A DNA stretch of 64,000 bases from Chloroflexota bacterium (lineage in GTDB: Bacteria; Chloroflexota; Dehalococcoidia; Bin125): the NCBI GenBank assembly GCA_026705025.1, contig JAPPBN010000026.1:74446-138445 (forward strand). Direction: 5' to 3'. The notes below the pieces were generated by a model. That model was not told the origin of the DNA. It saw only the letters and a program-made list of their open reading frames with translations, and ran no database searches. The translations under genes and the position numbers were made by a program. Shown in pieces: positions 12,683 through 54,195 of the stretch; the first letter of the stretch is position 1; every line of letters starts with the position of its first letter.

Positions 12683-12884
12683 GGGTTGTCTCCTTCTTGA
12701 TGCGTGCTCACTAAGCGCACGAGCCAATCCGGTTCGTGCGAAACCGTTGACAGGGTAGCGAATCCTCTGGTTGCGCGCTATGCGGGCGAGGTTCGCACCC
12801 GATTTCGGATGGGGTGGAGAATGGTCAAGCTGACTGGCGCACGAGGTCCCAGGACGAGTTGCGATCTGATCGTTGGCGTCGGGC

Positions 12885-15664: not shown

Positions 15665-17079
15665 ACCGACCGTCCGGCCGCTTCGGCGGCGCATTCGAGT
15701 CCTTTGGGCACCGCAACTACCGCCTGCTGTGGGGCGGCTCGCTGCTCTCGACGACGGCGTTCATGACGACGTTCCTGCTGGTGCCGATCGTCGGCTATGA
15801 GATCACGGGGTCGTATGCGCTGTCGACGCTGGCGCAGATGGGCAGCGGCCTGTCGATGTTCTTCCTGGGACCGCTGGGCGGAGTGATCGCGGATCGGTAT
15901 CCGAAGAAGCCGCTGGTGCTGGCGGGTCAGATTTTTCCGGCGCTGCTGATCGTGGGCACGGGGATCATGATCGTGACCGGGATCATCACGATTCCGTTGC
16001 TGTTCCTGGCGACGCTGATGATGGGCTTCGGGTTTGCGCTGATGGGTCCGGCGCGTCAGGCATGGCTGGGCGAGCTAATCCCGCGTCGGCTGCTGGGCAA
16101 CGGCGTGGCGCTGCAGCAGATGTCGCAGAACATGGCGCGCGTGCTCGGCCCGATGCTGGGGTCGATCGCGGTGTTCTTCGGCGTGTCGTCGGGGGCGCTG
16201 TACCTGTCGGTGGCGGGGCTGTTCCTGATCGTCGTGCCGCTAACGACGATGTTGCCGCGCACGAGGCCGCCGCACCAGGAGGGCGATCAGCCGCGGCGGA
16301 CGGCGATGGGCGACCTGATCCACGGGTTTGCTTACCTGCGCTCGAACCGGCGTCTGCGGCTGCTGTGGCTGTACTGGATGGTGATTGTCGTTTGCGGGTT
16401 CTCGGTGAACGCGCTGACGCCGGGGATTATGGATCGGGAGTTTGGGCGGTCGGCGCAGGAGGCGTTCATCGTCTTCCTGCCGTTCGGGATTTCGTCGGTG
16501 TTGATCAGCATTCCGCTGGCAGGGCTTATGAGCGGTCGGTTTGCGTGGCCGTTGCTGCTGATCTTCGGGCTGGCCTCGTCGGTGACGTTGTGGGCGTTTG
16601 CGATCGCGCCGACGTTCGAGACGTTGATCCTGCTGGCTCTGCCGGTGGGGGCGGCGACATCGGGTGTGATGTTGATCAACATGTCGCTGATGATGACGAA
16701 TTCGCGGGCCGAGTACTTCGGTCGGGTGATGTCGTTCATCATGCTGGGCTACGGGATGCAGTCGGTGATGGCGCCGGTGTGGGGCGGGTTGGCGGAATGG
16801 CTGGGCGGCCGTGAGGCGCTGATCGCCGTGGGTGTGGTGGCGTTGTTTGCGACGGTGTTGATGACGTTCGGCTGGTTGCGAACTCGTCATTTGCCGCTTG
16901 AACTGGGGACAGCGGCTGCGGACGAGGAGCCGGAACGCGCCAGAGCGTCGAGTCCGCGTGTGACCCGGCAGCCGGTGCCGGCGTTCGCGTCTCAGGTTGC
17001 GCCGGTTGTGTTGATGGGCGCGCAGAAGCCTCCAGGCGGGAGCGGCGAATTGCCTCGTCTCGCGGCGGGCGGCGATTGA
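15661..17079 (+). CDS. MFS transporter, MFS_3/EntS-like family, array unit 2
   Basis: 472 aa; ~70% identical to unit 3 over the N-terminal half; tail PAFASQVAPVVLMGAQK. Confidence 0.85.
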   Translation: MNRPSGRFGGAFESFGHRNYRLLWGGSLLSTTAFMTTFLLVPIVGYEITGSYALSTLAQMGSGLSMFFLGPLGGVIADRYPKKPLVLAGQIFPALLIVGTGIMIVTGIITIPLLFLATLMMGFGFALMGPARQAWLGELIPRRLLGNGVALQQMSQNMARVLGPMLGSIAVFFGVSSGALYLSVAGLFLIVVPLTTMLPRTRPPHQEGDQPRRTAMGDLIHGFAYLRSNRRLRLLWLYWMVIVVCGFSVNALTPGIMDREFGRSAQEAFIVFLPFGISSVLISIPLAGLMSGRFAWPLLLIFGLASSVTLWAFAIAPTFETLILLALPVGAATSGVMLINMSLMMTNSRAEYFGRVMSFIMLGYGMQSVMAPVWGGLAEWLGGREALIAVGVVALFATVLMTFGWLRTRHLPLELGTAAADEEPERARASSPRVTRQPVPAFASQVAPVVLMGAQKPPGGSGELPRLAAGGD

Positions 17080-18443
17080 TGCGTCGGAGCTTCGCGGCGT
17101 TCGGGGCTGGTAACTATCGGTTGTTGTGGGGCGGCACGCTGTTTTCGACGATGGCCTTCATGACCAGCTTTCTGCTGGTACCGATCGTGGCGTATGAGAT
17201 CACCGAGTCGTACGCGGCCTCGGGGTTTGCTCAGATGGGCAGCGGCGTCTCGATGCTGTTACTGGGTCCGATTGGCGGCGTGATCGCCGACCGTTACTCG
17301 AAGAAGCCGTTGGTGATGATCGGCCAGATCGTTCCGGCGCTGCTGATCGTGGGCACCGGCGTGTTGGTCGTGACCGGTCTGATCACGATCTGGATGCTGT
17401 TCGTCTCCAGCCTGCTGATGGGGGTGGGTTTTGCGCTGATGGGTCCGGCGCGGCAGGCATGGATGGGCGAGCTGATTCCACGGTCGCTGATGGGCAGCGG
17501 GGTCGGCCTGATGCAGGTGGCGCAGAACCTGGCGCTGGTGCTGGGGCCGATGCTGGGGTCGGTGTTGCTGATCGCGTTTGCGCTTGGCTCCGGACAGATC
17601 TACTTCCTGATTGCGGGGTTCTTCCTGGTCGCGCTGCCGTTGACCACCTGGTTGCCGAATGCGCCGGCGACGGCCGTGGCCGGGCGTCGATCGATTGCGC
17701 GCGAACTGGGGTCGGGGTTCAAGTACCTGATGGACAGTCCGCGGTTACGCATGCTGTGGGCCTTCTGGATGGTGATTACCGTCTGCCGGTTCTCGGCGCA
17801 GGTGCTGCTGCCGGGGTACATCGAGCGGAACTTCGGGGTTCCGGCGAGTGACATCTTCCTGCTGTATCTGGTTGTGGGCGTGGTTTCTCTGATCGCCAAT
17901 GTGCCGCTGGCGGGGATGGTGTCGGGACCGCGAGCCTGGCCGTTGTTGATCGGATTCGGGCTGCTGTTGTCGCTGGTCTTCGTGTTCGCCTCGCTGGCGC
18001 CGTCATTTTCCGCGATGATGCTGCTGGCGATTCTGGTCGGAATCTCGTCGAGCGGCGTTCTGCTGGTGAACCAGGCGCTGATCATGACCAACTCGCGGCC
18101 TGAGTTTTTCGGGCGGGTGATGTCGTTCGTGGTGCTCGGGTTCGCCGCGCAGTCGTTGCTTGGTCCGATCTGGGGGGTGAGCGCCGACGCGATCGGCGGG
18201 CGCGAGACGATGTTCGTGGTCGCGATGATCGTGCTCGGCGCAACCGTGACGCTGGGCGTTGGCTGGCGTCGCACGCGTCGCTTGCCGCTGGACGCGGGCA
18301 CTCCGGCCGCCCTTGCGGCTGCGGGGACCTCTCTGGGCTCGCGTCGATTGGCGCCGACTCCGGCGTTCGCCAGGCAGCTTGCGCCGGTCGTGCGGATGGG
18401 CAGGCAGAAACAACGGACGACGCCGCTTCCGGGCGGCGACTAG
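17076..18443 (+). CDS. MFS transporter, MFS_3/EntS-like family, array unit 3
   Basis: 455 aa; start overlaps the upstream stop; tail PAFARQLAPVVRMGRQK. Confidence 0.85.
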   Translation: MMRRSFAAFGAGNYRLLWGGTLFSTMAFMTSFLLVPIVAYEITESYAASGFAQMGSGVSMLLLGPIGGVIADRYSKKPLVMIGQIVPALLIVGTGVLVVTGLITIWMLFVSSLLMGVGFALMGPARQAWMGELIPRSLMGSGVGLMQVAQNLALVLGPMLGSVLLIAFALGSGQIYFLIAGFFLVALPLTTWLPNAPATAVAGRRSIARELGSGFKYLMDSPRLRMLWAFWMVITVCRFSAQVLLPGYIERNFGVPASDIFLLYLVVGVVSLIANVPLAGMVSGPRAWPLLIGFGLLLSLVFVFASLAPSFSAMMLLAILVGISSSGVLLVNQALIMTNSRPEFFGRVMSFVVLGFAAQSLLGPIWGVSADAIGGRETMFVVAMIVLGATVTLGVGWRRTRRLPLDAGTPAALAAAGTSLGSRRLAPTPAFARQLAPVVRMGRQKQRTTPLPGGD

Positions 18444-18452
18444 GCTCGAGCG

Positions 18453-21278
18453 ATGACCAGACTCAGCGTCACCTTTGCGGCGCTCGCGGTTCCGAACTTC
18501 CGCCGCCAGTGGATTGCTTCGACGCTGGCGACGACGGCGTTCATGACGACGTTCGTGCTGGTGCCGATCGTGGCGTACCAGTTGACCGGCTCGTACGCGG
18601 CTTCGGGGTTTGCGGCGATGGGGAATGGCGTGGGGATGCTGTTCCTGACGCCGCTGGGCGGGGTGGTGGCGGATCGGTTCCCGAAGAAGCCGATCGTGCT
18701 GATGGGTCAGTATTCGACGTTGGTGGTGATCGCCGGCACCGGCGTACTGATCGCGACTGACTTGATCACAATCCCATTGCTCTTTGCCTCGACTCTGCTG
18801 AGCGGGGCCACATTTGCGCTGACCGGTCCAGCTCGCCAGTCGTGGGTGGCAGAGCTGGTGCCCGGCCGGCTCGTGCCCAACGCAGTCGCGTTGCAACAGA
18901 TGGGGATCAACATCGCCCAGGTGCTGGGGCCGACCCTCGCCTCGGTCGCGGTAGTCGCATTCAACGTGAATGCCGGCGGCGTGTACCTCGGAATCTCCCT
19001 GGTCTTCTTGATTGTCGTCCCGCTCAACCACCTCCTGCCTCGGACGATGCCCAAGGTCGTCGAGCGGCGATCGCCGCGGCGGGAGCTGGCGGACGGCTTC
19101 CACTATCTGCGACGCAATCCGCGGCTGCGGATTCTGTGGGTGTTCTGGCTCGTGATCGTGATTTGCGGATTCGCGATCCAGACGTTGATGCCGGGCATTC
19201 TGGACCAGGAGTTCTCGCGCTCTTCCGACGAAGCCGTGCTGATCAATGCGATCTTTGGGATATCCGCGCTCGCGATCAATCTGCCATTGGCTGGCCTGGT
19301 CGGCGGTCGGCTGGCCTGGCCGCTGTTGCTGGGCACGGCGATCCTGATGGCCGTTGGTCTGTGGATGGTGGCGTGGGCTCCGACATACGGACTGGTGCTG
19401 ATCCTGAGCGCCGTGGCCGGGGCGGGACGCTCGGGGGTGATGCTCGTCAACCAGGCGATCATGATGTCGAACACGAAGCCCGAGTACTTCGGCCGCGTGA
19501 TGGCCTACGTGCTGATGGCGTTCGGATTGCAGTCGATCACCGCGCCGGCCTGGGGCATCATCGCCGACGTTATCGGCGGTCGGGAGACGCTGCTGCTGGT
19601 CGGCGTGATCGTGGTTGGGGCGACCGCGCTGATGTTCCTCGGTTGGGTTACGACGCGGCGGCTGCCGCTCGAAGTTGGGACGGCCGCCGCCACGGTGGCG
19701 AACGCGTCGGGGCAACCGGAAGTCGAGACCGAACCGAGGACTGCTCCAAGCCCTGCGTACAGCCCGCTGTTTGCTGCGCAGGTTGCGCCGATCGTGCTGA
19801 TGGAGGGGCAGAACCGCGAGCCGCAATCCCGAGCGGCGATTAGCCTGAGGCTAATGAATCGCCTGCGGGATACCTTCGCCTCGCTCGCCGTGCGGGACTA
19901 CCGGCTGCTGTGGATCGGGTCGTTGATGGCGACGACGGCCTTCATGACCACGTTTTACCTGGTGCCGATCGTGGCCTACGAGATCACAGGTTCTTACGCC
20001 GCGTCGGGGTTCGCACAGGCCGGCATGGTTGCCCAACTCGTGCTGGGACCGTTTGGCGGCGTGATCGCCGACCGCTACAAGAAGAAGCCGCTGGTGCTGG
20101 GCAGCCAGATCATCCCTTGCGCGATCATCGTCGTGACCGGGATCCTGATCGTGAGCGACAGCATCACGATCCCGTTGCTATTCGGCTCGACCTTCCTGAT
20201 GGGCGGGACGTTCTCGTTGATGGGTCCGGCGCGGCAGTCGTGGGTCGTGGAGCTGGTGCCGCAGCGGCTGCTGCCCAACGCTGTCGCGTTGCAGAACATG
20301 TCGATCAACATCGCGGCCGTGATCGGGCCGGCGCTGGCCGCGATTCTCGTCGTCTCGATGGGCCTCAACTCGGGCATTCTCTACATGCTGGTGGCGGTGC
20401 CGTTTGTGATCGTGATCCCCCTGACGTTGATGATCAGCGGCAGCGGGCGGGCCACGCCTCCGGAGGAACGCAAGGCGATGGCGACCGAGATGCTGGCCGG
20501 CCTGACCTACATCACGCGGCGGCCAAACCTGCGCAGCCTCTGGTTGTTCTGGACGCTGATCGTGGTCACCGGATTTGCGCTGCAGACGCTGGTACCGGGC
20601 TTGCTGGACCAGGAATTCGGTCGGTCCGAGAGCGAGGCGCTGATTATTGGCACGATCTGGGGGGTGACGGCGTTGCCGATCAACATCATGCTGGCCGGGA
20701 TGGTCGGCGGACGCTGGGCCTGGCCGCTGCTGTTCCTCTCGGCGCTGGCGCTGGCCGGCGGCATCTGGCTGACTGCCTGGTCGCCGGTTTACGCGGTGCT
20801 GCTGATCGTCTCGGCGATCGCCGGCGGGGCGCGGTCGGCCGTGATGCTGCTCAACCAGGCGATCATGATGACGAACACGCGGCCCGAGTACTTCGGACGT
20901 GTGATCAGCTGGGTGTTCATGGCCTTTGGTCTGCAGGGCATCCTGGCGCCGGTCTGGGGGATCGTGGCTGACGCGATCGGCGGTCGGGAGACGCTGTACA
21001 TCGTGGGTCTGGTGGTTGTGGCCGGGACGATTCTGATGGCGTTGTCAAGGGCGCGGAATCGGCGGATTCCACCGGAGCCCGGGACGGCGGCCTACTCGAT
21101 CGCAGGTTTCGGCGGCGAACAGCCTCCCGAGCCTGAGCCTCGATTAGTCCCGTCCGAGCCGAGAACCGCTCCGAGCCCGGCGATCAGTCCGCTGTTTGCG
21201 GCTCGCCTGGCGCCGGTGGTGCTGATGGAGGGTCAGAAGCCGCGTTCTGCAGGGCCTGCGATCTCCGGCGGCGACTAG
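18453..21278 (+). CDS. tandem-fused double MFS transporter (array units 4+5 in one 941-aa ORF)
   Basis: Two complete 12-TM MFS_3 domains. The second begins at in-frame ATG 19854 (MNRLRDTFASLAVRDY..). No stop in the junction ...MEGQNREPQSRAAISLRLMNRL... Confidence 0.75.
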   Translation: MTRLSVTFAALAVPNFRRQWIASTLATTAFMTTFVLVPIVAYQLTGSYAASGFAAMGNGVGMLFLTPLGGVVADRFPKKPIVLMGQYSTLVVIAGTGVLIATDLITIPLLFASTLLSGATFALTGPARQSWVAELVPGRLVPNAVALQQMGINIAQVLGPTLASVAVVAFNVNAGGVYLGISLVFLIVVPLNHLLPRTMPKVVERRSPRRELADGFHYLRRNPRLRILWVFWLVIVICGFAIQTLMPGILDQEFSRSSDEAVLINAIFGISALAINLPLAGLVGGRLAWPLLLGTAILMAVGLWMVAWAPTYGLVLILSAVAGAGRSGVMLVNQAIMMSNTKPEYFGRVMAYVLMAFGLQSITAPAWGIIADVIGGRETLLLVGVIVVGATALMFLGWVTTRRLPLEVGTAAATVANASGQPEVETEPRTAPSPAYSPLFAAQVAPIVLMEGQNREPQSRAAISLRLMNRLRDTFASLAVRDYRLLWIGSLMATTAFMTTFYLVPIVAYEITGSYAASGFAQAGMVAQLVLGPFGGVIADRYKKKPLVLGSQIIPCAIIVVTGILIVSDSITIPLLFGSTFLMGGTFSLMGPARQSWVVELVPQRLLPNAVALQNMSINIAAVIGPALAAILVVSMGLNSGILYMLVAVPFVIVIPLTLMISGSGRATPPEERKAMATEMLAGLTYITRRPNLRSLWLFWTLIVVTGFALQTLVPGLLDQEFGRSESEALIIGTIWGVTALPINIMLAGMVGGRWAWPLLFLSALALAGGIWLTAWSPVYAVLLIVSAIAGGARSAVMLLNQAIMMTNTRPEYFGRVISWVFMAFGLQGILAPVWGIVADAIGGRETLYIVGLVVVAGTILMALSRARNRRIPPEPGTAAYSIAGFGGEQPPEPEPRLVPSEPRTAPSPAISPLFAARLAPVVLMEGQKPRSAGPAISGGD

Positions 21279-21401
21279 CTCGCGGCCGGAGCGGGAGCTT
21301 TTGCATCGGAAACCCAGGCAGTTTCCTCTCCCGCGGAAATCCCTCTCTTCGGAGCTAGACTTGCTCCCGTTGTGCTGATGGAGGGTCAGAAACCGCGGTG
21401 A
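21279..21401 (+). pseudogene. relic: duplicated MFS C-terminal tail (..EIPLFGARLAPVVLMEGQKPR*) in frame after the stop of 18453..21278
   Basis: The 26 nt gtgctgatggagggtcagaaaccgcg match the tail of the upstream gene at 25/26 positions. TGA overlaps the GTG start of the next MFS gene. Confidence 0.5.
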
Positions 21402-22741
21402 GCGAGCCGCCAACGCCAGCCGTTCTCCGGCAGCAGCCAGTGCTGCCCGAGTTTCCCTCGTCGCCGGGCCTTTGGCGAACTCCCGGCTATCGATGGCTCT
21501 GGATCGCCACCCTCTTGCTCGGCACCGGGTACGGTGTCACCTTGTCCAGTCAAGCCTCCTTCTGGGACGAAACGGCGTTCGACTCGACGACGATTGCATT
21601 TGTTGGTCTGAGTAATGGAATCGGAATCTTGTTTGGGTACCTGCTGGCCGGGCTGACCGCGGATCGCCGTCCAAAGCGGTCACTGGTCCGGATTCAGGTG
21701 CTGGCAACGGCCGGGTTGTCCGCGCTCACTGCGGTCCTCGCGCTCGCCATCGGGTTGGCAGGAGACTGGTTCTTCGTATTGGCGGTGTTGTTTGGCGTTG
21801 CACACGGCGCGGCGTTCGCTGTGATGCTCGGTTGGACCGCAGAGATACTTCCCCGACGGTTGATTGCCAAGGGCGTGATTGTCGTGGCCCTCGCGGGCTA
21901 CGCGCAGACGCTCTTGACAGTGGTTCCCGGCGTGTCTGTCCGCGGCGAACCGAGCGCTGTGTTCTGGTTCTTCGCAGTTGCCTGCTTGGCTTACCTGCTG
22001 ACTGCATTGGCAGTCAGGAAGGTTCCTGCTTTGACTCCAGTCTGTGCCGACACCAGCACGATCGGGGAGCTTCGGCTCGCATTGAGGTACTTATGGGGCG
22101 ACGTTCGGCTCAGGTCGCTCTGCGCTTATGCCCTGGGTGCCAGCGCGGCGATGACATTTGCGGAAGCAGCCATTCTGCACCTGTTGTGGGTAGAACATGG
22201 CTTTCGCTCCTGGGACTACACGCTTCCGTTCATAGCTCGGGGCGGGGCCTACTTCGTGTCGACGCTCGCGCTCGTCTTTCTCATTAGCAGCCGCCACCGA
22301 TGGTTGTTGTTCGTCGTGGCGGCAGTGTTGCTAGGGATCGCTGTCGCGCTGCTTGCTGCATCATCCGTGGTCGCCACACTGACGATGCTTATGGCCCTCG
22401 TGGGCTTGGCGTCTCCGATCGTACTGATCGGTTATCGGGCGCTGGGACTGTCGGTTACCCGTTCCTTGTTCTTCGGTCGCGTTGCGGCTCTAATGTTGTT
22501 CGTGGATAGTCTGCTGGATTTTGCAGCGGGATTTCTCCGGGTACACCTCTTCGATCTACTCAACGGACGCATCGCGGTCCTGACGTGCGGATTGTTGCTC
22601 ACTCTGTTGGCATTTTGGTTTTGGACCCGGTGGCGCCGTTTCCGATTCCTGAGTGAAGATCCAGATGTTACCGAGACCGATGTGCCGAGGAATCTGTTGT
22701 TGAATGCCGTAGCGCCGCAGAAGACTGCCCGGCTGGACTAG
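21398..22741 (+). CDS. MFS transporter, divergent member of the array (unit 7)
   Basis: 447 aa, ~12 TM; GTG start; tail ...LLNAVAPQKTARLD retains a trace of the array tail motif. Confidence 0.75.
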   Translation: MSEPPTPAVLRQQPVLPEFPSSPGLWRTPGYRWLWIATLLLGTGYGVTLSSQASFWDETAFDSTTIAFVGLSNGIGILFGYLLAGLTADRRPKRSLVRIQVLATAGLSALTAVLALAIGLAGDWFFVLAVLFGVAHGAAFAVMLGWTAEILPRRLIAKGVIVVALAGYAQTLLTVVPGVSVRGEPSAVFWFFAVACLAYLLTALAVRKVPALTPVCADTSTIGELRLALRYLWGDVRLRSLCAYALGASAAMTFAEAAILHLLWVEHGFRSWDYTLPFIARGGAYFVSTLALVFLISSRHRWLLFVVAAVLLGIAVALLAASSVVATLTMLMALVGLASPIVLIGYRALGLSVTRSLFFGRVAALMLFVDSLLDFAAGFLRVHLFDLLNGRIAVLTCGLLLTLLAFWFWTRWRRFRFLSEDPDVTETDVPRNLLLNAVAPQKTARLD

Positions 22742-36820: not shown

Positions 36821-37351
36821 ATGCGCGACATGAAAGAAGTCACCATCGAAGCGCTGCGCGTCTCTCTGATGAACTACAACCGCGTCGTGGTCCTCAAGGA
36901 AAAGGACGCCGACCGCTACCTGACCATCTACATCGGCGCGGCCGAGGCCGATGCGATTGCCATCCGGCTGCAGAACGTGTCAGTCCAGCGGCCGATGACG
37001 CACGATTTGATGACCAATGTGATGCAGGAGCTGGGCGCCAGCGTGACCCGGGTTGTCGTGACCGAGGTGCGCAACGACACCTATTACGCCCGCGTCTTCC
37101 TGGACGTGAACAATGAGCAGGTGGAGATCGACTCCCGCCCGTCCGACGCGATCGCACTGGCGGTTCGGGCCGAGGCGCCGATTTTCGTCGAGGACGAGGT
37201 GATCGACCAGGCAGGGGTGTTGCTCGACGACGAGGGCCTGGTGGCGACCGACGAAGAGGGTCGGCCCGAGCCGGTCAAGCCGGAGGAACTGGAAAAGATG
37301 TCGGCCTTCCGCGACTTCATCGAGTCGCTCGACATGGACGACTTCGAGTAA
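36821..37351 (+). CDS. bifunctional nuclease family protein (BFN/DUF151)
   Basis: 176 aa; EVTIEALRVSLMNYNRVVVLKEKDADRYLTIYIG matches BFN domain. Confidence 0.75.
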   Translation: MRDMKEVTIEALRVSLMNYNRVVVLKEKDADRYLTIYIGAAEADAIAIRLQNVSVQRPMTHDLMTNVMQELGASVTRVVVTEVRNDTYYARVFLDVNNEQVEIDSRPSDAIALAVRAEAPIFVEDEVIDQAGVLLDDEGLVATDEEGRPEPVKPEELEKMSAFRDFIESLDMDDFE

Positions 37352-37426
37352 TCCGCACTACACAACGATTGCCGGGTCTGGAATCGGCTCCCGCCGAGGC
37401 GGCACTGCCTTGTCGCAAGTGGTGTC

Positions 37427-37442
37427 TGTGATAGCCTTCACA
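37427..37442. promoter_or_regulatory. Rex operator candidate upstream of the ATP synthase operon
   Basis: tgtgatagccttcaca = TGTGA-N6-TCACA, close to the Rex consensus TTGTGAA-N4-TTCACAA; 24 nt upstream of the atpZ start; rex at 48309..48983. Confidence 0.55.
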
Positions 37443-37465
37443 TTGCTCCGGCAGGGGGTACCCCC

Positions 37466-37755
37466 ATGAGACAGTGGCCGCCGGCCATGCAACTCATGGG
37501 CATCGGCTGGTACGTGGCTACGTGCATCGTGCTGGGCGTTGTCGGTGGAGTCCTGCTGGACGACGAGTTGGGCACGGGATTCGCGCTCACGCTCGTCGGA
37601 CTCGCTCTCGGTTTGGCTACGGCCGGCTGGGGTGGGTACCGGATGTTGCAAGATCTATTCGCCGCTCAAACGCGGCAACGACAAGACCAGGCAGAGCGGC
37701 GCCCTCCCTCCGAAGACGCGCCCGTGGACGATGAACAGGACGAGGAGGAGCGCGC

Positions 37756-37759
<4 letters not shown>
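37466..37759 (+). CDS. atpZ: ATP synthase protein I / AtpZ-like small membrane protein
   Basis: 97 aa; two TM helices; immediately upstream of and overlapping atpB. Confidence 0.65.
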
Positions 37760-39647
<1,888 letters not shown>

Positions 39648-39747
39648 CCTGACGCCGCCAGACCCCGCAGTGGAGCGCCGCCGGACGCTGGTCCAGCGGC
39701 GCAGCTGACGGGATTGGCAACCGGAACAGACTGATTGGCAGGATGGT

Positions 39748-40248
39748 ATGGACGCTCTCGGTCTCAACCTGGCCGGACTGATCACGCATTTCATCAGTTT
39801 CGGCATCCTGTTCGCGCTGCTGATCTTCCTGCTCTACAAGCCGCTCGGCCGGGTGCTCGATGAGCGGCGCAAGCGGATCGAAGAGGGTCTGACCGCGTCT
39901 GAACGCGCTCAGGAAGCGGCTGAGGAAGCGCGCGCCGAGGCGCGCGCCGAGATTCAGCAGGGCCGCGACGAGGCCCAGCGCCTGGTCGCACAGGCTCAGG
40001 AACTGGCGCAGCGGATCGAAGCCGAAGCGCGTGAAAACGCCGCGGGCCAGGCCGAACAGCTGATCGAACGCGCCCGCTCGGAAATCGAGCAGGAACGTGA
40101 TCAGGCCGTGCAACAGCTGCGCAATGAGTTTGCCGGCATGGCGATCGCGGCCGCCGAACGGGTGATTGAACAGTCACTGGATGCGGACGACCACCAGCGG
40201 TTGATTAGCGACGTGCTGGCCGAATCGTCCAGTGGACAGCAGAACTAG
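39748..40248 (+). CDS. atpF: F0F1 ATP synthase subunit b
   Basis: 166 aa; single N-terminal TM then a long charged coiled-coil. Confidence 0.85.
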   Translation: MDALGLNLAGLITHFISFGILFALLIFLLYKPLGRVLDERRKRIEEGLTASERAQEAAEEARAEARAEIQQGRDEAQRLVAQAQELAQRIEAEARENAAGQAEQLIERARSEIEQERDQAVQQLRNEFAGMAIAAAERVIEQSLDADDHQRLISDVLAESSSGQQN

Positions 40249-40257
40249 GAGCGACCT

Positions 40258-40797
40258 GTGGCGCTGAGTGATCCCGCTGCACGACGCTACGCCGACGCGG
40301 TGTTCGGCATCGCGCACGACACCGCATCTCACGATCGCTGGTTATCCGATCTTGAGGACATCGCGGCCTTGTTCAGCGAGCCGACGGTCAACGGGTTCCT
40401 CGTCTCGACCCGCGTTGCGCAGGCTGAGAAGGAGCAAGTGCTCGACAACGCGCTGCCCGATGTTCAGCGCGCTGCCGCGAACTTCGCCAAACTGCTCGTT
40501 CGCAAGCGGAGGGCCAACCTGGCTCCGCAGATCATTGAAGCGTTCCGCGAGCGCCTGAACAGTGTGCGCGGTATCGCCGAAGCGACCGTGACGACCGCCG
40601 TCCCGCTCTCTGACGACGCGCGTTCCGCCGTCGAAGAGGCAGTGCGGCGCTTCACCAACGCCGAGACCGTTTCGCTCAGCGAAACGGTTGATGGCCAGAT
40701 CATCGGCGGCGCCGTGGTCAAAATCGGCGACCGGATCATTGACGGATCCGTCCGCACGCGCCTGTCCACCATGCGCCGTTCGTTGGCGCAGGGTTAA
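40258..40797 (+). CDS. atpH: F0F1 ATP synthase subunit delta
   Basis: 179 aa; OSCP/delta family pattern. Confidence 0.85.
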
Positions 40798-40819
40798 TCA
40801 CACCGAAGGAGTCAGCATT

Positions 40820-42346
<1,527 letters not shown>

Positions 42347-42399
42347 GCAACCGGCGGCGCGGTACCAGCTCAGAGGCATAGAGAGAGCGGCAACGGTCG

Positions 42400-43278
42400 A
42401 TGGCCAACACCCGAGAAATCCGACGGCGCATCCGTTCGGTCGAGAACACGGCCAAGATCACCAATGCGATCCAGCTCGTGGCGGCGTCCAAGATGCGCCG
42501 CGCGCAGGACCGCGCGCTCCAGGCGCGTCCCTACGCCGAAAAGATGCAGGCCGTCCTCGGACATCTCTCCGGTGTCGCCGGCGATCCCGACACCGCACAT
42601 CCGTTGCTGGAACGGCGCGAGATCAACGAGACCACCGTCATCCTGATCACGCCCGACCGCGGGCTCTGCGGCGGATTGATCGCCAATCTCGAACGCCACA
42701 CCGGCGAGATCGTGCTCGGACCCGAGGCCGGCGGCTCGGGCGACATCTCGATGATTCCGGTAGGCCGCAAGGGCGGCGATTACTTCCAGCGCTTCGGAAT
42801 CAACTTCCGCGCCAGCTTCCAGGAACTCGGCGACTACCCCGGACTGGCCGAGACTCAGCCGATCTCTCGCATCGCCATCGACGACTACACCGAAGGCCGC
42901 GTCGACCAGGTCCTGCTCGTCTACGCCTCATTCATCAATACCGTCTCGCAGGTTCCGGTCACGGTACCGATCCTCCCAGTCGAGCCGCCTCCCAGCGGCG
43001 AGGAATCGTCGGGAGAGACGCAGTACATCTTCGAGCCGTCACCGCAAGAGGTGTTGGCCGATCTGTTGCCGCGCTACGTCGACCTGCTGGTCTACCAGGC
43101 AGTGCTCGAGGCGGCCGCCTCGGAGCAGTCGGCCCGCATGGTCGCCATGCGCAACGCGACCGACGCGGCGAACGACATGATCGCCGACCTCACGCTCGTC
43201 TACAACAAGGCCCGCCAGGAGCAGATTACCTCCGAGTTGCTCGATATCACCGGCGGCGTCGAGGCGCTCAAGGGCTAA
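42400..43278 (+). CDS. atpG: F0F1 ATP synthase subunit gamma
   Basis: 292 aa; MANTREIRRRIRSVENTAKITNAIQLVAASKMRRAQ. Confidence 0.9.
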   Translation: MANTREIRRRIRSVENTAKITNAIQLVAASKMRRAQDRALQARPYAEKMQAVLGHLSGVAGDPDTAHPLLERREINETTVILITPDRGLCGGLIANLERHTGEIVLGPEAGGSGDISMIPVGRKGGDYFQRFGINFRASFQELGDYPGLAETQPISRIAIDDYTEGRVDQVLLVYASFINTVSQVPVTVPILPVEPPPSGEESSGETQYIFEPSPQEVLADLLPRYVDLLVYQAVLEAAASEQSARMVAMRNATDAANDMIADLTLVYNKARQEQITSELLDITGGVEALKG

Positions 43279-43281
43279 GTC

Positions 43282-43959
43282 ATGGCGTCACAGTCATCAG
43301 CGGCGATCTTCGACATGGACGGCGTCCTGCTTGACTCCGAGCCGCTGCACTACGAGGCCGTCCGCCAGGCTCTGGCCGAGCAAGGCGTCGACTTTCCATT
43401 CGACGACTACGCCCGCTATCTCGGCACAACGCTGACCAGCACCTGGGACGAACTCTGCGAGCGCTACCCGATTACGATGACGCTCGAGCAGTTCGAAGCG
43501 CGCTACAACGCCGACGTGCTCAAGCAGTATCAGGCCGGCGCCCCACTGATCCGCGGCGCGCGGGAGCTTGTCGAGCAGCTTCGCGAAGCCGGAGTGCCAA
43601 TCGCCGTCGCCAGCTCGTCACACCGAATGTGGGTCAACGCCGCGCTCGAAGGCGCAGGATTGAGCCACTACTTCGACCAGACCACCGCAGGCGACGAGGT
43701 CTCGATGGGCAAGCCTTCGCCCGAGATCTACCTCAAGGCCGCCGAGAAGCTGGGCGTTGACCCCGCCCGCTGCGTCGCCATCGAGGACGCACCCGCCGGC
43801 GTGGAATCCGCCAATGCCGCCGGGATGAAGGTCGTCCTCGTGCGCAGCGAACTCACCCAAGACCTCAATCTGACATCTGACTGGCAGGTCAATGACCTGA
43901 CCGAATTCAAACTCACGTGGTTGTCCGAGCCGTCCGCCGACCTGGTCGGCGCGGCCTAG
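43282..43959 (+). CDS. HAD-IA family hydrolase (beta-phosphoglucomutase/phosphatase-like) embedded in the atp operon
   Basis: 225 aa; motif I FDMDGVLLDS, motif II-IV present; lies between atpG and atpD with gaps of 3 and 24 nt. Confidence 0.8.
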   Translation: MASQSSAAIFDMDGVLLDSEPLHYEAVRQALAEQGVDFPFDDYARYLGTTLTSTWDELCERYPITMTLEQFEARYNADVLKQYQAGAPLIRGARELVEQLREAGVPIAVASSSHRMWVNAALEGAGLSHYFDQTTAGDEVSMGKPSPEIYLKAAEKLGVDPARCVAIEDAPAGVESANAAGMKVVLVRSELTQDLNLTSDWQVNDLTEFKLTWLSEPSADLVGAA

Positions 43960-45393
<1,434 letters not shown>

Positions 45394-45426
45394 GCTTGCA
45401 CCAACGACGTCTGAGGGGACGCCACC

Positions 45427-45870
45427 ATGCCGCTCACGCTCGAGATCATCACCGGCGAACGCCGCCTGTTGCGGCAGGAAGACGTCGACGAGGTCATTGC
45501 TCCCGGCTCACTCGGAGAACTTGGGATCCTGCCCAACCACGCCCCGCTCGTGACGTCGCTGGTCGCAGGCGAGCTGCGGGTCAAGACCGGCAACGAGGTT
45601 GAAGAGTTTTTTGTCAGCGGCGGATTCCTCGAGGTCCTGTCGGATGAGGTCACTGTTCTGGCCGACGCAGCCGAACATGGCTCGGAGATCGACGCGGAAC
45701 GTGCGGAAGAAGCTCGGCAACGGGCAGTTGAGCGGCTGGAGCAGGCCAGCGACGCCGATCGCGCGCGTGCGCAGGCTGCCCTCTCACGATCGCTCCAGCG
45801 ACTCCGGGTGCTCGAACATCGACGTCGGCGAGGCGGAGGCGGCCGGGACATGTCGCGGCCTACGGGCTAA
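45427..45870 (+). CDS. atpC: F0F1 ATP synthase subunit epsilon
   Basis: 147 aa; N-terminal beta-sandwich pattern with a C-terminal extension. Confidence 0.85.
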   Translation: MPLTLEIITGERRLLRQEDVDEVIAPGSLGELGILPNHAPLVTSLVAGELRVKTGNEVEEFFVSGGFLEVLSDEVTVLADAAEHGSEIDAERAEEARQRAVERLEQASDADRARAQAALSRSLQRLRVLEHRRRRGGGGRDMSRPTG

Positions 45871-45908
45871 CACGATCGGCGGGTCGACTCGGCAGGTACA
45901 GTCTCTGT

Positions 45909-47204
45909 ATGAGCGCTGCCGCCGAGCCCTGTTTCCGAATCAACGGATTGCGACGCCTCGACGGCTTGTTGCGCGTCAATGGCGCCAAGAACGCCGCGTT
46001 GCCCTGCCTGGCGGCTTCGCTGCTTTCCGATAAGCCATCCCGCTTGCGCCGCGTGCCCAACATCGAAGACGTGCGGCGTTTGCTGGAAATCCTCTCGTTC
46101 CTCGGCGTCGAATCGGAGTTCCATGACAATGAGGTCGTTGTGCGCCCGTCGGGCGTCTGCGGCGGCAGTCCGCCCGATGCGCTCGCTGCGGCGCTGCGGG
46201 CATCCTTTCTGGTCATGGGGCCACTGTTGGTTCGGACCGGTCTGGCCAGTTGCGGCACGCCGGGCGGCGACGTGATCGGTGCGCGCCCTCTGGATGTCCA
46301 TCTCGCCGGATTTCGGGCGCTGGGCGCCGAAGTCGAATCGGTGGGCGGTCGGACGATCGCGCGCGCGCCGCATGGCTTGCGTGGCGCCACCTTCGTGCTC
46401 GACTACCCGAGCGTTCTGGGCACGGAGAACCTGCTACTCGCCGCAACACTTGCGCTCGGACGCACGCGCCTGGTCAACGCGGCGATGGAGCCGGAGATCA
46501 TCTGTTTGGCCGAAATGTTGAACCGGATGGGCGCGAGCATTTCGGGCGCCGGTGGCCACACCATCACGATCGACGGCGTCGAGCGGCTAACCGGGGTCGA
46601 GCACGAGCTCATTCCTGACAGGATTGAGACCGGCAGCCTGCTCATTGCCGCTGCCGTGACGCGGGGACGGGTCTGTCTGCAAGGCGTCAGACCCGATCAT
46701 CTTGAGTCGCTCCTGGGCAAGCTCAGCGAGATCGGAGTGGACGTCAGCCGGGAACCATGGCAGCTGGACATCGCGGTCGAGGTCGACGCTCGTCTCACGG
46801 CTACCAACCTGCAGTCGCTGCCGTTTCCGGGGTTCGCCACCGATTTGCAGGCGCCGATGACGGCGCTACTCACTCAGGTCGAAGGCACGTCCGTGGTCCA
46901 TGAGCGAGTCTTCGAGAACCGGATGCAGCATCTCGATGAGCTTCGCAAGTTCGGCGCCAATATCATCGCCGGCGGCGCGGCGCCGGTTGTAATCGGGCCG
47001 ACGCCGCTAACCGGGGCTGTGGTTCGCGGAACCGACATTCGTGCCACGGCGGCGTTGATTGTCGCGGCGCTCGCGGCCGACGGCGAGAGCCGCATCTACG
47101 GGGTCGATCATCTGTCTCGCGGTTACGCGGATCTGGCCGGGCAACTGCAACATCTTGGCGCCGACATTGAGCTCGCCCGAAGCGCCGATACACTGACCAA
47201 CTGA
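45909..47204 (+). CDS. murA: UDP-N-acetylglucosamine 1-carboxyvinyltransferase
   Basis: 431 aa; GAKNAALP motif, EPT fold. Confidence 0.9.
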   Translation: MSAAAEPCFRINGLRRLDGLLRVNGAKNAALPCLAASLLSDKPSRLRRVPNIEDVRRLLEILSFLGVESEFHDNEVVVRPSGVCGGSPPDALAAALRASFLVMGPLLVRTGLASCGTPGGDVIGARPLDVHLAGFRALGAEVESVGGRTIARAPHGLRGATFVLDYPSVLGTENLLLAATLALGRTRLVNAAMEPEIICLAEMLNRMGASISGAGGHTITIDGVERLTGVEHELIPDRIETGSLLIAAAVTRGRVCLQGVRPDHLESLLGKLSEIGVDVSREPWQLDIAVEVDARLTATNLQSLPFPGFATDLQAPMTALLTQVEGTSVVHERVFENRMQHLDELRKFGANIIAGGAAPVVIGPTPLTGAVVRGTDIRATAALIVAALAADGESRIYGVDHLSRGYADLAGQLQHLGADIELARSADTLTN

Positions 47205-47240
47205 CTACGCTGAATGCACTGATCGGCCGAAGCGGAGATC

Positions 47241-48287
47241 ATGTTCCTCACCAAACGACTTGGTATCGATCTCGGTACCTCCCGTCTCAGAATTGCCGTG
47301 CCTGGCCGCGGCGGACAGATTGTGATCGACCAGCCCCCGGTCGTCACGCTGTCGACCCAGGAAAACGCAGTGCTCGCCGCCGGCAATGACGCCGCCAATA
47401 TGGTCGGCCGTGCGCCCGAGTCGGTCAGCGTGATCAATCCCATGCGCGAAGGCGTCATCGACGACTACCGAATCGTCGAAGCATTGCTTCGCTACTACAT
47501 GGGACTGGTCGTCGGGCGCTTCAACCTGGTGCGTCCGGAGGTGATGATTGCGACCCCGGCTGGAGTGACCAACGTCGAGCAACGGGCCGTGCGAGACGCC
47601 GCCGAACAGGCCGGCGCGCGGCGGCCGGCTCACCTGATCGCCAACCCACTCGCCGCCGCGATCGGCGCCGGCGTGCCCATGGGAGACGCGCGCGGCGCGC
47701 TGATCGGCAATCTCGGCGCCGGCCGCTCGGAGGCGGCGGTGCTGTCGATGTACGGAGTCGTGGTCTGGGAGTCGGCGCGAGTCGGCGGAGAAGTCGTCAC
47801 TGAAACCATCGCCGACCACGTCAAACGACGACACAGCCTGTTGATCGGCGAACCGACGGCGGAGGAGCTCAAGTTCGCAGCCGGCTCGGCGATCCCGGTC
47901 GAGGATCCGGTACGGGCCGAAGTGCGAGGCCGTGATCAGTCGAGCGGCATGCCCCGTAGCGTGACGATTACGGCAAATGAACTCGTGCCCTCTGTGCAGC
48001 AGGTGCTGCAGACGTTCGTCGAAGTGACTCGCAGCACGCTCGAGCGCACGCCGCCCGAGTTGACCGCTGACATCATCGACCGCGGCATGCTGCTGACCGG
48101 CGCCGCGGCTCGCCTCCAGGGGATTGACGCCTATCTCGCCGAACAGGTCGGGATTCCCGTCACCATCGCCGACAACGCGGAGGACGCGGTGGCCCTGGGC
48201 GCGGCGGAAGCGCTCGACAACCTCGACATCGTCGGGCCGAATCTGCTCGCTCAGGAAAGTGTGCTGGGAGCGGCCGAAGCGCGCTGA
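47241..48287 (+). CDS. mreB: rod shape-determining protein MreB/Mbl family
   Basis: 348 aa; actin-like ATPase, GIDLGTS phosphate-1 motif. Confidence 0.85.
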   Translation: MFLTKRLGIDLGTSRLRIAVPGRGGQIVIDQPPVVTLSTQENAVLAAGNDAANMVGRAPESVSVINPMREGVIDDYRIVEALLRYYMGLVVGRFNLVRPEVMIATPAGVTNVEQRAVRDAAEQAGARRPAHLIANPLAAAIGAGVPMGDARGALIGNLGAGRSEAAVLSMYGVVVWESARVGGEVVTETIADHVKRRHSLLIGEPTAEELKFAAGSAIPVEDPVRAEVRGRDQSSGMPRSVTITANELVPSVQQVLQTFVEVTRSTLERTPPELTADIIDRGMLLTGAAARLQGIDAYLAEQVGIPVTIADNAEDAVALGAAEALDNLDIVGPNLLAQESVLGAAEAR

Positions 48288-48308
48288 CCGACGAACCGAC
48301 TAGACCGA

Positions 48309-48983
48309 CTAGTTGGCCGTCACGTCAGCCTGGTGATCCTCGACATAACCGTCGAACGGCTCTTCGAGGTAGTAAGCCATGCTTTCGAGTTCCATGACGG
48401 GATCGATCTGGCGCAGACGCACGCCCTGGGGCACGCTCATCGTCACGGGAGCGTAGCTGAGAATCGCCCTGACGCCGCCGTCAACCAGGATGTCGATCAC
48501 GGACGGGGCCGCTTCGGCCGGGACCGCCACGATGCCCATCGCGACGCGCGTTTTCTGCAGGTACTCGGACAGCCTGGCGACATCGTCAACGCGATAGTTG
48601 TCGATCTTTCGGCCGATCTGACTCGGATCGGAGTCGAACACGCGCACAACCTCGAAGCCGCCCAGCTGGAATCCGCGATAGCCCAGTACCGCGCGCCCCA
48701 GCTGCCCCACTCCAACGAGCACCATCTCTTTGACCCGCCCGTTCAGACCGAGGATGCTGCGCAGCCGTTCCCTCAGGCTGAGGACCTCATAGCCGCGCCC
48801 GCGCTTGCCGAAGCGGCCAAAGTAGGACAGATCCTTGCGAATCTGAGCCGGCGTCACGCCAAGCCGACGGCCCAACTCCTGGGAGGAGATGAAATCGCGG
48901 CCTTCGCTCGCGAGCAGCCCGAGCTCGCGCGCATAGAGCGGCAGGCGGCGAATGACGATATCCGGGATCTCGATCTCGCTCAC
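48309..48983 (-). CDS. rex: redox-sensing transcriptional repressor Rex
   Basis: 224 aa; N-terminal winged helix (RLPLYARELGLL) then NADH-binding Rossmann domain (GVGQLG). Confidence 0.85.
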   Translation of the reverse strand: MSEIEIPDIVIRRLPLYARELGLLASEGRDFISSQELGRRLGVTPAQIRKDLSYFGRFGKRGRGYEVLSLRERLRSILGLNGRVKEMVLVGVGQLGRAVLGYRGFQLGGFEVVRVFDSDPSQIGRKIDNYRVDDVARLSEYLQKTRVAMGIVAVPAEAAPSVIDILVDGGVRAILSYAPVTMSVPQGVRLRQIDPVMELESMAYYLEEPFDGYVEDHQADVTAN

Positions 48984-49083
48984 TCGAACACTCTCGTTGA
49001 TGATTGCTTGCGGCTCAGACTACAACCGACCGCCCAATTGTCGGCCCGGTATTGATTGCGAGGATGTTGCGGCTGTTTGATAT

Positions 49084-50082
49084 CTATAACACACGATCAT
49101 CGGGCTGGCGCTCTCCGAAATCGTCGGCTCTCAGTGTGTCCAGCGTGCCCAGGTCGGCGTCCGAGACGTTGGCCAGGTCGACCGCGGCGATCTGATCTTC
49201 GAGTTCCGCTCGATTCTTGACTCCCGGGACGACAGTTGAGACGGCAGCCTGCTGCAGCGCGAATCGCGCCGACCAGCGGGATAGCGGAACTCCGTCTCGC
49301 TCCAGGAAACGCAGAGTCCGCGCTCTCCTGTAATCAATGGCTACGAGCGAGTCGGGCGGCACTGCGCGATCGATGGAGTTGGACAGAGCTCCGGCCGCGA
49401 GGTTGCGAATGCCGATCACGCCGATGCCCAGCTCCTCGGCCAGGGGCAGCAGCTGCCCGTGATCGTGCAGTGACGAGCCGTCAGGCAAGGGTCTGGCGTT
49501 CGAGTCGTTGAGCAGGTTGTAGTAGCACTGCACTGTGTCCAGCGAGCCCTCGCGCAACACCGTTCGGACGGAGCCGCCGTCGCCCATTCCGGTGACGCCC
49601 ACGTAACGAGTCAGGCCGTCCTGCTTGAGTCGATGCAGCGTGTCAATGGCGAGCATCGCGTCGGCCACCGAAACCGAGCGTCGATAGTGGCCCCGCGTCG
49701 GCGTAATCGTGTTGTGCAGCTGGAAGAGGTCGACTCGTTCCCGTCGCAGGCGTTCCAGGGACTCGTGGATGCCGCGCTCCACCGCTGCGGGAATGTCGGC
49801 CAGATCGTCCTCACTCAGGGCGACCTTCGTCGCCACCAGCATGTCGTGTCCGCGGCCTTGCGGAGCCTCGAGCAACGCGCGGCCCAGATTGCGCTCGGCC
49901 GCCCCGTCTCCATAGCTCGGAGCGACGTCGTAGAAGTTGATCCCTTCCGCCATCGCGAAGGTGATCGTCTCGGCAATCTCCTCGTCCGTGGTTTCGCCCC
50001 AGACGTGCCCAATCCCGCCGCCGCCCAGACCGATCTCGGAAACGACCAGCCCTGTCCGTCCCAACTTGCGGTATCGCATCAT
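49084..50082 (-). CDS. aldo/keto reductase
   Basis: 332 aa; MMRYRKLGRTGLVVSEIGLG N-terminus typical of AKR. Confidence 0.85.
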   Translation of the reverse strand: MMRYRKLGRTGLVVSEIGLGGGGIGHVWGETTDEEIAETITFAMAEGINFYDVAPSYGDGAAERNLGRALLEAPQGRGHDMLVATKVALSEDDLADIPAAVERGIHESLERLRRERVDLFQLHNTITPTRGHYRRSVSVADAMLAIDTLHRLKQDGLTRYVGVTGMGDGGSVRTVLREGSLDTVQCYYNLLNDSNARPLPDGSSLHDHGQLLPLAEELGIGVIGIRNLAAGALSNSIDRAVPPDSLVAIDYRRARTLRFLERDGVPLSRWSARFALQQAAVSTVVPGVKNRAELEDQIAAVDLANVSDADLGTLDTLRADDFGERQPDDRVL

Positions 50083-53476: not shown

Positions 53477-53857
53477 TTGACGGCATACTCTCGACGTATG
53501 GAATGGGAGGTGGAGTACACCGATGAGTTCGAGCATTGGTGGCTCCAACTCTTGGTTGGTCAGCAGGAAGATGTCGGTATGCGCGTGGAAATGCTGCGTA
53601 GGCAGGGGCCCAACCTTCCGTTTCCGCATTCTTCGAGTATTCGGACATCGCGGCACGGGAGAATGCGCGAACTGAGAGTGCAGAGCGGTGGCAGGCCCAT
53701 CAGGGTGTTCTATGCGTTCGATCCCCGCAGGACCTCGATTCTGTTGATTGGCGGAGACAAGACGGGCAACGACCGATTCTATGAAGAATTCGTACCGTTG
53801 GCTGACAGGCTCTATGACGAGTACCTGATTGAGCTAAGACGGGAAGGACTGATCTGA
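53477..53857 (+). CDS. type II toxin-antitoxin system RelE/ParE-superfamily toxin (HigB/Gp49-like)
   Basis: 126 aa; RELRVQSGGRPIRVFYAFDPRRTSILLIGGDKTGNDRFYEE pattern; stop overlaps the antitoxin start (TGATG). Confidence 0.7.
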   Translation: MTAYSRRMEWEVEYTDEFEHWWLQLLVGQQEDVGMRVEMLRRQGPNLPFPHSSSIRTSRHGRMRELRVQSGGRPIRVFYAFDPRRTSILLIGGDKTGNDRFYEEFVPLADRLYDEYLIELRREGLI

Positions 53858-54195
53858 TGGCTGGCCACCGACCATTCAGTGAGTTGACTCGCGACTGGGA
53901 GCCGGAGCGGCTGGAGCGCGTGAGGGAAGGCGCGGATAAGCTGCTCCGCGAAATGCGGCTGCACGAGTTGCGCCGGGCGCGCGAACTCACCCAGCAGGAC
54001 CTGGCCGAGAGGTTGCAAGTCAATCAGCCTGCCGTAGCCAAGATGGAACAGCGCGCCGATGTCTACGTCTCCAGCTTGCGCCACTACATCGAGGCCGTCG
54101 GGGGTCGACTGAAGGTCGTCGCCGAGTTTCCCGAAGGCGAGGTGGCGATCACCAACTTTTCGGAGGTCGGCCAGGACCCTCCGTCACAGCACTAA
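53857..54195 (+). CDS. XRE-family HTH antitoxin (HigA-like)
   Basis: 112 aa; RRARELTQQDLAERLQVNQPAVAKME HTH_XRE. Confidence 0.7.
   Translation: MAGHRPFSELTRDWEPERLERVREGADKLLREMRLHELRRARELTQQDLAERLQVNQPAVAKMEQRADVYVSSLRHYIEAVGGRLKVVAEFPEGEVAITNFSEVGQDPPSQH

Follow-up and report, generated by a model that had tools for sequence, protein, structure and literature searches.

A probable Rex operator at the promoter of the F1Fo ATP synthase operon in a Dehalococcoidia-class Chloroflexota genome

Results

Organization of the atp locus

The window, i.e., the whole 64-kb stretch of DNA analyzed here, encodes a complete F1Fo ATP synthase operon. An atpZ/atpI-like gene is followed by the genes for subunits a, c, b, delta, alpha, gamma, beta, and epsilon, all assigned through Pfam matches. 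A 114-nt intergenic gap separates the atpZ-like gene from a bifunctional-nuclease gene on its 5' side, and an 18-bp palindrome sits inside this gap. The genes and putative regulatory elements considered below are:

36821..37351: bifunctional-nuclease gene (PF02577), upstream neighbor of the operator gap
37410..37415 (+): -35-like hexamer TTGTCG within the conserved block TTGTCGCAAG, putative promoter element
37426..37443 (.): candidate Rex-type operator, 18 bp, cTGTGA-TAGCCT-TCACAt, with a perfect core and conservation in loci L001-L005
37432..37437 (+): -10-like hexamer TAGCCT (TAnnnT), preceded by TGa (extended -10), predicted for the window
37452..37457 (+): Shine-Dalgarno-like AGGGGG, 8 nt before the atpZ ATG; the G-rich stretch is kept in relatives
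37466..37759 (+): atpZ/atpI-like first gene of the operon, 97 aa (PF09527, ATPase_gene1, E 7e-10)
37756..45870 (+): rest of the F1Fo operon (Pfam matches), comprising the following nine genes
37756..39309 (+): atpB (Pfam)
39399..39647 (+): atpE (Pfam)
39748..40248 (+): atpF (Pfam)
40258..40797 (+): atpH (Pfam)
40688..42346 (+): atpA open reading frame (Pfam), true start probably near 40800
42400..43278 (+): atpG (Pfam)
43282..43959 (+): HAD hydrolase gene (PF13419/PF00702), inserted between atpG and atpD
43984..45393 (+): atpD (Pfam)
45427..45870 (+): atpC (Pfam)
48309..48983 (-): rex, NADH/NAD+-sensing repressor, 224 aa (PF06971 and PF02629)

A preliminary description of this DNA had placed a near-consensus Rex operator in front of atpZ and a rex gene about 11 kb downstream. 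Both gene assignments hold: the open reading frame that starts at ATG 37466 matches PF09527 (E 7e-10), and rex, with PF06971 and PF02629 matches, lies 10.9-11.5 kb downstream of the site.

Two further features of the operon were noted. The HAD-family hydrolase gene is separated from atpG and atpD by just 3 and 24 nt, respectively. Furthermore, ATP synthase subunit a (37756..39309, +) comprises 517 aa and carries an insert of ~240 aa (roughly residues 126-372) that separates two PF00119-matching stretches and has no Pfam match of its own. By tblastn, this insert was found in L001-L005 only, at 53-77% identity, and was absent from the other 75 atp loci.

Elsewhere in the window, five consecutive MFS-transporter genes occupy 14270..22741 (+), one of them a 941-aa double-length fusion, and in this stretch both GC skew (as high as 0.25) and AT skew are unusually strong. 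Directly after gyrA, a Gp49-like gene (PF05973) is paired with an HTH gene (PF13744) at 53477..54195 (+), which looks like a HigB/HigA-type toxin-antitoxin module.

The palindrome and its match to the Rex consensus

The 16-mer reported at 37427..37442 was recovered exactly as TGTGATAGCCTTCACA; with one flanking base on each side it reads cTGTGATAGCCTTCACAt (37426..37443). Measured from the 16-mer, the spacing to the atpZ start codon is 23 nt. Its 10-nt core, TGTGA-N6-TCACA, has no mismatch, and the full Rex consensus TTGTGAA-N4-TTCACAA is matched at 11 of its 14 specified positions. The three mismatches fall at positions 1, 7, and 18: the outer T and A of the consensus are missing, and its A at position 7 is replaced by T. 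The label "near-consensus" is apt for the core.

The exact core occurs once in the 64-kb window, counting both strands, namely at the atp site, and no second site with at most one core mismatch was found elsewhere in the window. In shuffles of the window, the mean number of exact cores was 0.05, with at least one match in 5 of 100 shuffles. Matches to the full consensus with three mismatches were far more frequent in shuffles (mean 0.54 per 64 kb, at least one in 43 of 100). Because such a match is unremarkable in 64 kb of DNA, it would not carry an operator claim by itself and is only suggestive. It is the placement and conservation described below that raise the atp site above chance. The mismatch count lies within the range of Streptomyces avermitilis sites that were positive in EMSA, where sites with three mismatches were bound more weakly than those with one or two (PMC5355995).

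The palindrome could also act at the level of RNA, as a leader hairpin or as a terminator of the upstream nuclease gene, since its arms could pair into a 5-bp stem around a 6-nt loop. Neither role was borne out. There is no T-run and no terminator was called, the search against Rfam gave no match at E <= 1 except a spurious miRNA match, and the region 37352..37480 folded no better than shuffled sequence (z = 0.27). An RNA element or terminator was rejected on these grounds.

A further question is which protein family such a core would serve. The classical CRP site is likewise TGTGA-N6-TCACA, with TGTGAT as the preferred left arm. As this core is common to Rex and CRP/FNR sites, it does not discriminate between them. 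The palindrome could accordingly be the operator of a CRP/FNR-family dimer, in which case the atp operon would answer to cAMP, oxygen, or another signal. The window site would suit such a regulator: its core is perfect, its left arm has the CRP-preferred form, and it lacks the outer T and A that mark Rex sites. On the other hand, no cNMP-binding or Crp-type HTH gene was detected by Pfam among the ~55 open reading frames of the window, whereas rex is present and syntenic.

Conservation across Chloroflexota

With the C-terminal portion of subunit a as query, a scan limited to a single genome for each species yielded 80 atp loci. The loci closest to those of the window, for rex as well as atp, all belong to metagenome-assembled genomes (MAGs) of Dehalococcoidia-class Chloroflexota with ~64-69% G+C. 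The five closest genomes (L001-L005, a-subunits 75-92% identical) carry TTGTGATAATCTTC(A/G)CA or TTGTGATAATCTCCACAA at the same position: TTGTGATAATCTTCGCAT in L001 and L002, CTGTGATAATCTTCACAG in L003, and TTGTGATAATCTCCACAA in L004 and L005. In all five, the start codon is conserved and the 18-bp site lies 21-22 nt before it. In the alignment of the window with L001-L005, mean column identity was 0.90 over the 18-bp site and 0.92 over the TTGTCGCAAG block 10 nt upstream of it, compared with 0.73 in the leader and 0.54 in the remaining, diverged upstream intergenic DNA.

On a broader scale, we searched all 80 loci for the a priori Rex arms TTGTG-N8-CACAA with at most one mismatch. The upstream zone, defined as 400-1500 nt 5' of the subunit-a match and totaling 86 kb, contained 21 matches, vs 12 in the other 782 kb, which is an enrichment of ~16-fold (Poisson P 2e-18). 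A site by either pattern was present in 24 of 46 Chloroflexota loci vs none of the 34 remaining loci, from CPR and other sources (Fisher P 5e-8); about half of the Chloroflexota atp loci are site-less at a threshold of one mismatch. The sites precede a short open reading frame by 4-92 nt (201 nt in L067) and, except in L039 and L067, lie within ~60 nt of it. In all four loci tested, this reading frame matched PF09527. A purely accidental resemblance, for which the 43% of shuffles with a three-mismatch consensus match would speak, is very improbable for a site that is conserved across six genomes and enriched across the phylum, and the same applies to the RNA-level roles considered above.

The Rex consensus is also followed at positions outside the selection pattern, with nothing but A or C at position 6 and a predominance of T at positions 12 and 13. 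In the relatives, conservation covers TTGTG-N8-CACAA with its outer TT/AA, whereas the inner A/T positions of the CRP core vary (A or C at 6, any base at 13), and this is the pattern of Rex. Although the palindrome shares its 10-nt core with CRP/GlxR-type sites, its flanks and its conservation pattern in the relatives follow the Rex consensus, and no CRP-family gene was seen in the window. In five loci (L006, L008, L011, L021, and L034), the palindrome lies just upstream of the -35 element, a position that is also typical of activators and would fit a CRP/FNR-type protein. For the window site considered in isolation, such a protein is the chief alternative to Rex. Considering both sides, we regard control by a CRP/FNR-family regulator as unlikely.

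In a distant Dehalococcoidia genome (L052), a perfect Rex box with an adjacent half-site, TTGTGAGGCGCTTCACAA-TTGTGA, was observed at 2282..2305. It lies ~85 nt before a gene pair for an ABM monooxygenase (PF03992) and a GMC oxidoreductase, just upstream of the nuclease-atp cluster. The Rex motif accordingly occurs in textbook form within this class.

Promoter and leader architecture

The atp site overlaps conserved -35- and -10-like hexamers. The -35-like TTGTCG belongs to the TTGTCGCAAG block (identity 0.92 across six genomes) and is 16 nt from the -10-like TAGCCT, which occupies operator positions 7-12, i.e., the exact center of the operator. The homologous position reads TAATCT in L001-L005. 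A strict sigma-70 consensus scan called no promoter in the window, where the atp hexamers match the consensus at 4/6 and 3/6 positions, and the promoter assignment for the window rests on the relatives. In L032 and L064, the scan called TATAAT with an upstream TG, matching 11 of 12 consensus positions, and this -10 again coincides with operator positions 7-12. By analogy, transcription in the window would start near 37444-37446; as the right arm would reach this start, the leader would be ~21 nt long, with AGGGGG as the probable Shine-Dalgarno sequence. The latter is overlapped by a perfect 12-nt palindrome, GGGGGTACCCCC (37453..37464), which is partly retained in L002 (GGGGGAATCCCC). Since it is not kept in L003-L005, this second palindrome is probably incidental.

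Across the relatives, the operator was found in three arrangements. In the first (a), it is centered on the -10 element, as in L032 (TTGACC-N12-TTGTGA-TATAAT-CCACAA), L064 (TTGTGA-TATAAT-ACACAA), and L016 and L030 (TTGTGA-TAAAAT-GCACAA). Here the palindrome brackets a perfect extended -10 in several relatives (TTGTGA-TATAAT-nCACAA). The window and L001-L005 are also of this type, with TTGTCG, 16 nt, and TG-a-TAGCCT (or TAATCT). In the second (b), the operator ends 3-4 nt before a -35-like TTGATC (L006, L008, L011, L021, and L034) and its spacers are GC-rich, e.g., TCGTGCATCGTCTCACAA. In the third (c), it ends ~6 nt before TATGAT (L018, L023, and L061).

These arrangements bear on whether the conserved block could be a core promoter only, composed of the -35, a -16 TRTG extended -10, the -10, and the initiation region, with accidental symmetry. 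The left arm is indeed explicable in this way, as TTGTGA-TATAAT reads as TRTG-n-TATAAT, and in L032 and L064 the 11/12 promoter has its TG exactly there. In addition, the -35 block and the site are conserved to the same degree. The right arm CACA(A), however, which has no role in a core promoter, shows no variation at positions 16 and 17 across 22 sites; both positions belonged to the selection pattern, in which one mismatch was allowed. Moreover, the same palindrome recurs with GC-rich, -10-less spacers and in other -35/-10 registers (arrangements b and c), and its 16-fold enrichment is specific to atp promoters. Given that the palindrome is kept while the spacer (from TATAAT to GC-rich) and the promoter register vary, it is better understood as the site of a regulator than as a feature of the core promoter. 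We consider the promoter-only explanation improbable.

The Rex protein and its genomic context

Hundreds of homologues of the window protein carry the name Rex in Chloroflexota and Dehalococcoidia MAGs. The Rex encoded in the window has both the N-terminal winged HTH (PF06971) and the C-terminal Rossmann NAD(H) domain (PF02629), and its alignments to solved Rex structures span the whole protein, with E values of 1e-36 to 3e-41, the latter for Thermotoga maritima Rex. Of the 12 residues with which T. maritima Rex contacts DNA, ten are unchanged here, including the base-reading Arg48/Lys49 and the minor-groove Arg60/Gly61 (T. maritima numbering). The two exceptions are Glu34, replaced by Gln, and Lys43, replaced by Thr. 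Lys43 makes backbone (phosphate) contacts in T. maritima Rex, and Thermus aquaticus Rex also has Thr there; Glu34 is counted among the poorly conserved contact residues of the T. maritima protein (PMC8836258). The residues for NAD(H) binding and sensing are kept as well, i.e., GVGQLG (GxGxxG), FDSD (Asp115), an aligned Tyr (Tyr100), and an Asp in helix alpha-9 (Asp191). The genomes of L003 and L004 likewise encode Rex (P0023 and P0041).

For the gene order between atpC and gyrA, we compared 45427..50082 of the window with L081, L086, and L088. In the window, atpC is followed by murA (EPSP_synthase family) and mreB, a convergent rex, an aldo/keto reductase gene, one or two further genes, and gyrA. 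This order, from atpC to gyrA, recurs in L086 and L088, whose Rex proteins are 60-64% identical to that of the window, and in the close relative L081. Because this synteny is conserved across the class, the proximity of rex to atp carries more weight than the preliminary description implied. In the genome that contributes L004 and L085, rex lies ~720 kb from atp and the atp site is still kept, which indicates that linkage of rex and atp is common but not required. The intergenic gaps are short, with 38 nt between atpC and murA and 36 nt between murA and mreB, and no terminator was called, so that transcription from the atp promoter might continue into murA and mreB.

Candidate sites upstream of rex and elsewhere in the window

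The preliminary description had further named a weak Rex-like element at about 49053..49072 as a possible site for autoregulation of rex. The element, TGTGTTATAGATATCAAACA, was located ~20 nt away, on the minus strand at 49093..49074 (i.e., 49074..49093). It overlaps the TAG stop codon (49086..49084) of the gene ahead of rex, which encodes the aldo/keto reductase; it has at least 3 of 10 core positions mismatched, is not among the window sites with at most two mismatches, and aligns with relatives only through coding sequence. A better candidate, TTGTAGTCTGAGCCGCAA (49025..49008, -; two mismatches), lies 25-42 nt before the rex start; it was rejected, as no relative other than L084 retains it. 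What is left of it in L081 and L085 is the TAGCCT-like -10 portion. Among six distinct further rex loci (seven loci, of which L081 and L082 are near-identical copies), a site with one mismatch was found in L086 only, 163 nt upstream of rex. Autoregulation of rex is therefore unsupported by these sequence comparisons.

The same upstream stretch (49008..49025) carries TTGTAGTCT/TTGTAGCCT, which is conserved in most close relatives. The full string is present in the window, L081, and L084, and TAGCCT alone in L085. As the TAGCCT-type hexamer in this string is the one found at the -10 of the atp promoter, it probably serves the rex promoter as its -10.

No second Rex target was found in the window, which does not encode the classical targets nuo, cyd, ndh, ldh, or adhE. 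The only other intergenic match with two core mismatches in the window is the weak Rex-like CTGTCAACGGTTTCGCAC at 12736..12753 on the minus strand (4 of 14 consensus positions mismatched). An aldehyde:ferredoxin oxidoreductase gene (10568..12727, -) begins 9 nt beyond it, counted to the start of the longest ORF, and the match is, taken alone, at chance level.

Discussion

A model for Rex control of the atp operon

The findings point to the 18-bp palindrome at 37426..37443 as the operator through which the genome's own Rex controls the F1Fo operon, a reading to which we assign a probability of roughly 0.75. It is supported by conservation at orthologous promoters, phylum-wide enrichment, the agreement of unselected positions with the Rex consensus, the retention of Rex residues, and the synteny of rex and atp across the class, all of them lines of evidence drawn from sequence. 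Taken together, they would favor Rex over another dimeric regulator as the binder of the site. The direction of regulation and its dependence on NADH would follow by analogy from characterized Rex proteins, which repress their targets and are relieved by NADH (PMC5355995, PMC8836258, PMC7244524).

We propose that the operator is built around the -10 element of the promoter. The left arm (c)TGTGA would supply the TG of the extended -10, the central TAGCCT would serve as the -10, and the right arm TCACA would cover the stretch to the transcription start. At a low NADH/NAD+ ratio, a Rex dimer with NAD+ would sit on both arms and keep sigma-70 RNA polymerase off the -10. Because the palindrome brackets an extended -10 in several relatives, occlusion of this element is the likely mechanism. 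When NADH rises, Rex would change conformation and leave the DNA, and the atp operon would be derepressed. The level of ATP synthase would consequently track the supply of reducing equivalents.

Comparison with known Rex systems

The closest precedent is found in Streptomyces. In S. avermitilis, Rex represses atpIBEFHAGDC and footprints TTGTGATACGGTTCACGA in the atpI promoter, as demonstrated by EMSA, ChIP, and footprinting (PMC5355995), and the Rex regulon of S. coelicolor also includes ATP synthase (PMC7244524). The two systems share the target, i.e., an atpI/atpZ-type first gene of the F1Fo operon, and the motif, including an unusual TGTGAT left arm in both (TTGTGATACGGTTCACGA vs cTGTGATAGCCTTCACAt). 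They would also share a site over the core promoter, repression, and relief by NADH, features that are established in Streptomyces (PMC5355995, PMC7244524) and predicted from sequence here. They differ in phylum, Actinomycetota vs Chloroflexota (Dehalococcoidia), and in the position of the operator: in Streptomyces the footprint, from -50 to -22, takes in the -35, but the operator of the window and of many relatives is centered on the -10. Unlike in Streptomyces, rex in the window is not co-transcribed with hem genes and has no convincing autoregulatory site.

More generally, the palindrome resembles the operators of the Rex regulons of Staphylococcus aureus, Bacillus subtilis, Thermotoga, and Thermus. 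These are 18-bp palindromes of the form TTGTGAA-N4-TTCACAA, read by a winged HTH through Arg48/Lys49 and Arg60/Gly61, all of which are conserved in the window Rex. As in those regulons, the putative regulator is an NADH-sensing Rossmann dimer, and energy-conversion genes are typical targets. In contrast to the ATP synthase operon considered here, the Firmicutes regulon consists mainly of genes for fermentation and anaerobic respiration. A further difference is that the central 6 bp would serve as the promoter -10 in this lineage.

Significance

Since it has been shown in Streptomyces, direct control of F1Fo ATP synthase by the NADH/NAD+ ratio is already established in another phylum. What is new here is the Dehalococcoidia-class lineage, the breadth of conservation within this lineage, the -10-centered design, and the synteny of rex and atp. 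Apart from Ravcheev et al. 2012 (J Bacteriol), a comparative genomics study of Rex that reportedly includes Chloroflexi, the full-text literature searched yielded no statement on a link between Rex and atp in Chloroflexi or Dehalococcoidia. The finding leaves the picture of both Rex and ATP synthase regulation as it was; it describes a regulatory site that is well supported and unsurprising.

We also considered an ancient association of Rex with the atp operon, the two being inherited together in Dehalococcoidia and neighboring Chloroflexota. In this reading, the operator would be fused to the extended -10, with sigma factor and repressor recognizing the same bases, and Rex would have a very small regulon that has ATP synthase at its center and possibly takes in murA and mreB by read-through. 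This extension is a good deal more doubtful than Rex control of the operon itself, and we offer it tentatively. If it were true, cell-wall growth and the level of ATP synthase would be tied directly to NADH/NAD+.

To our knowledge, Chloroflexota are mostly uncultured, and almost no regulation has been experimentally defined in them. The element TTGTG-N8-CACAA over the atp -10 is a well-defined and conserved cis-element that can anchor the reconstruction of Rex regulons in Dehalococcoidia MAGs. Its design would be compact, with operator arms that bracket the -10 and a left arm that doubles as the extended -10. If the proposed operator is genuine, direct control of F1Fo ATP synthase by Rex would extend from Actinomycetota to Chloroflexota.
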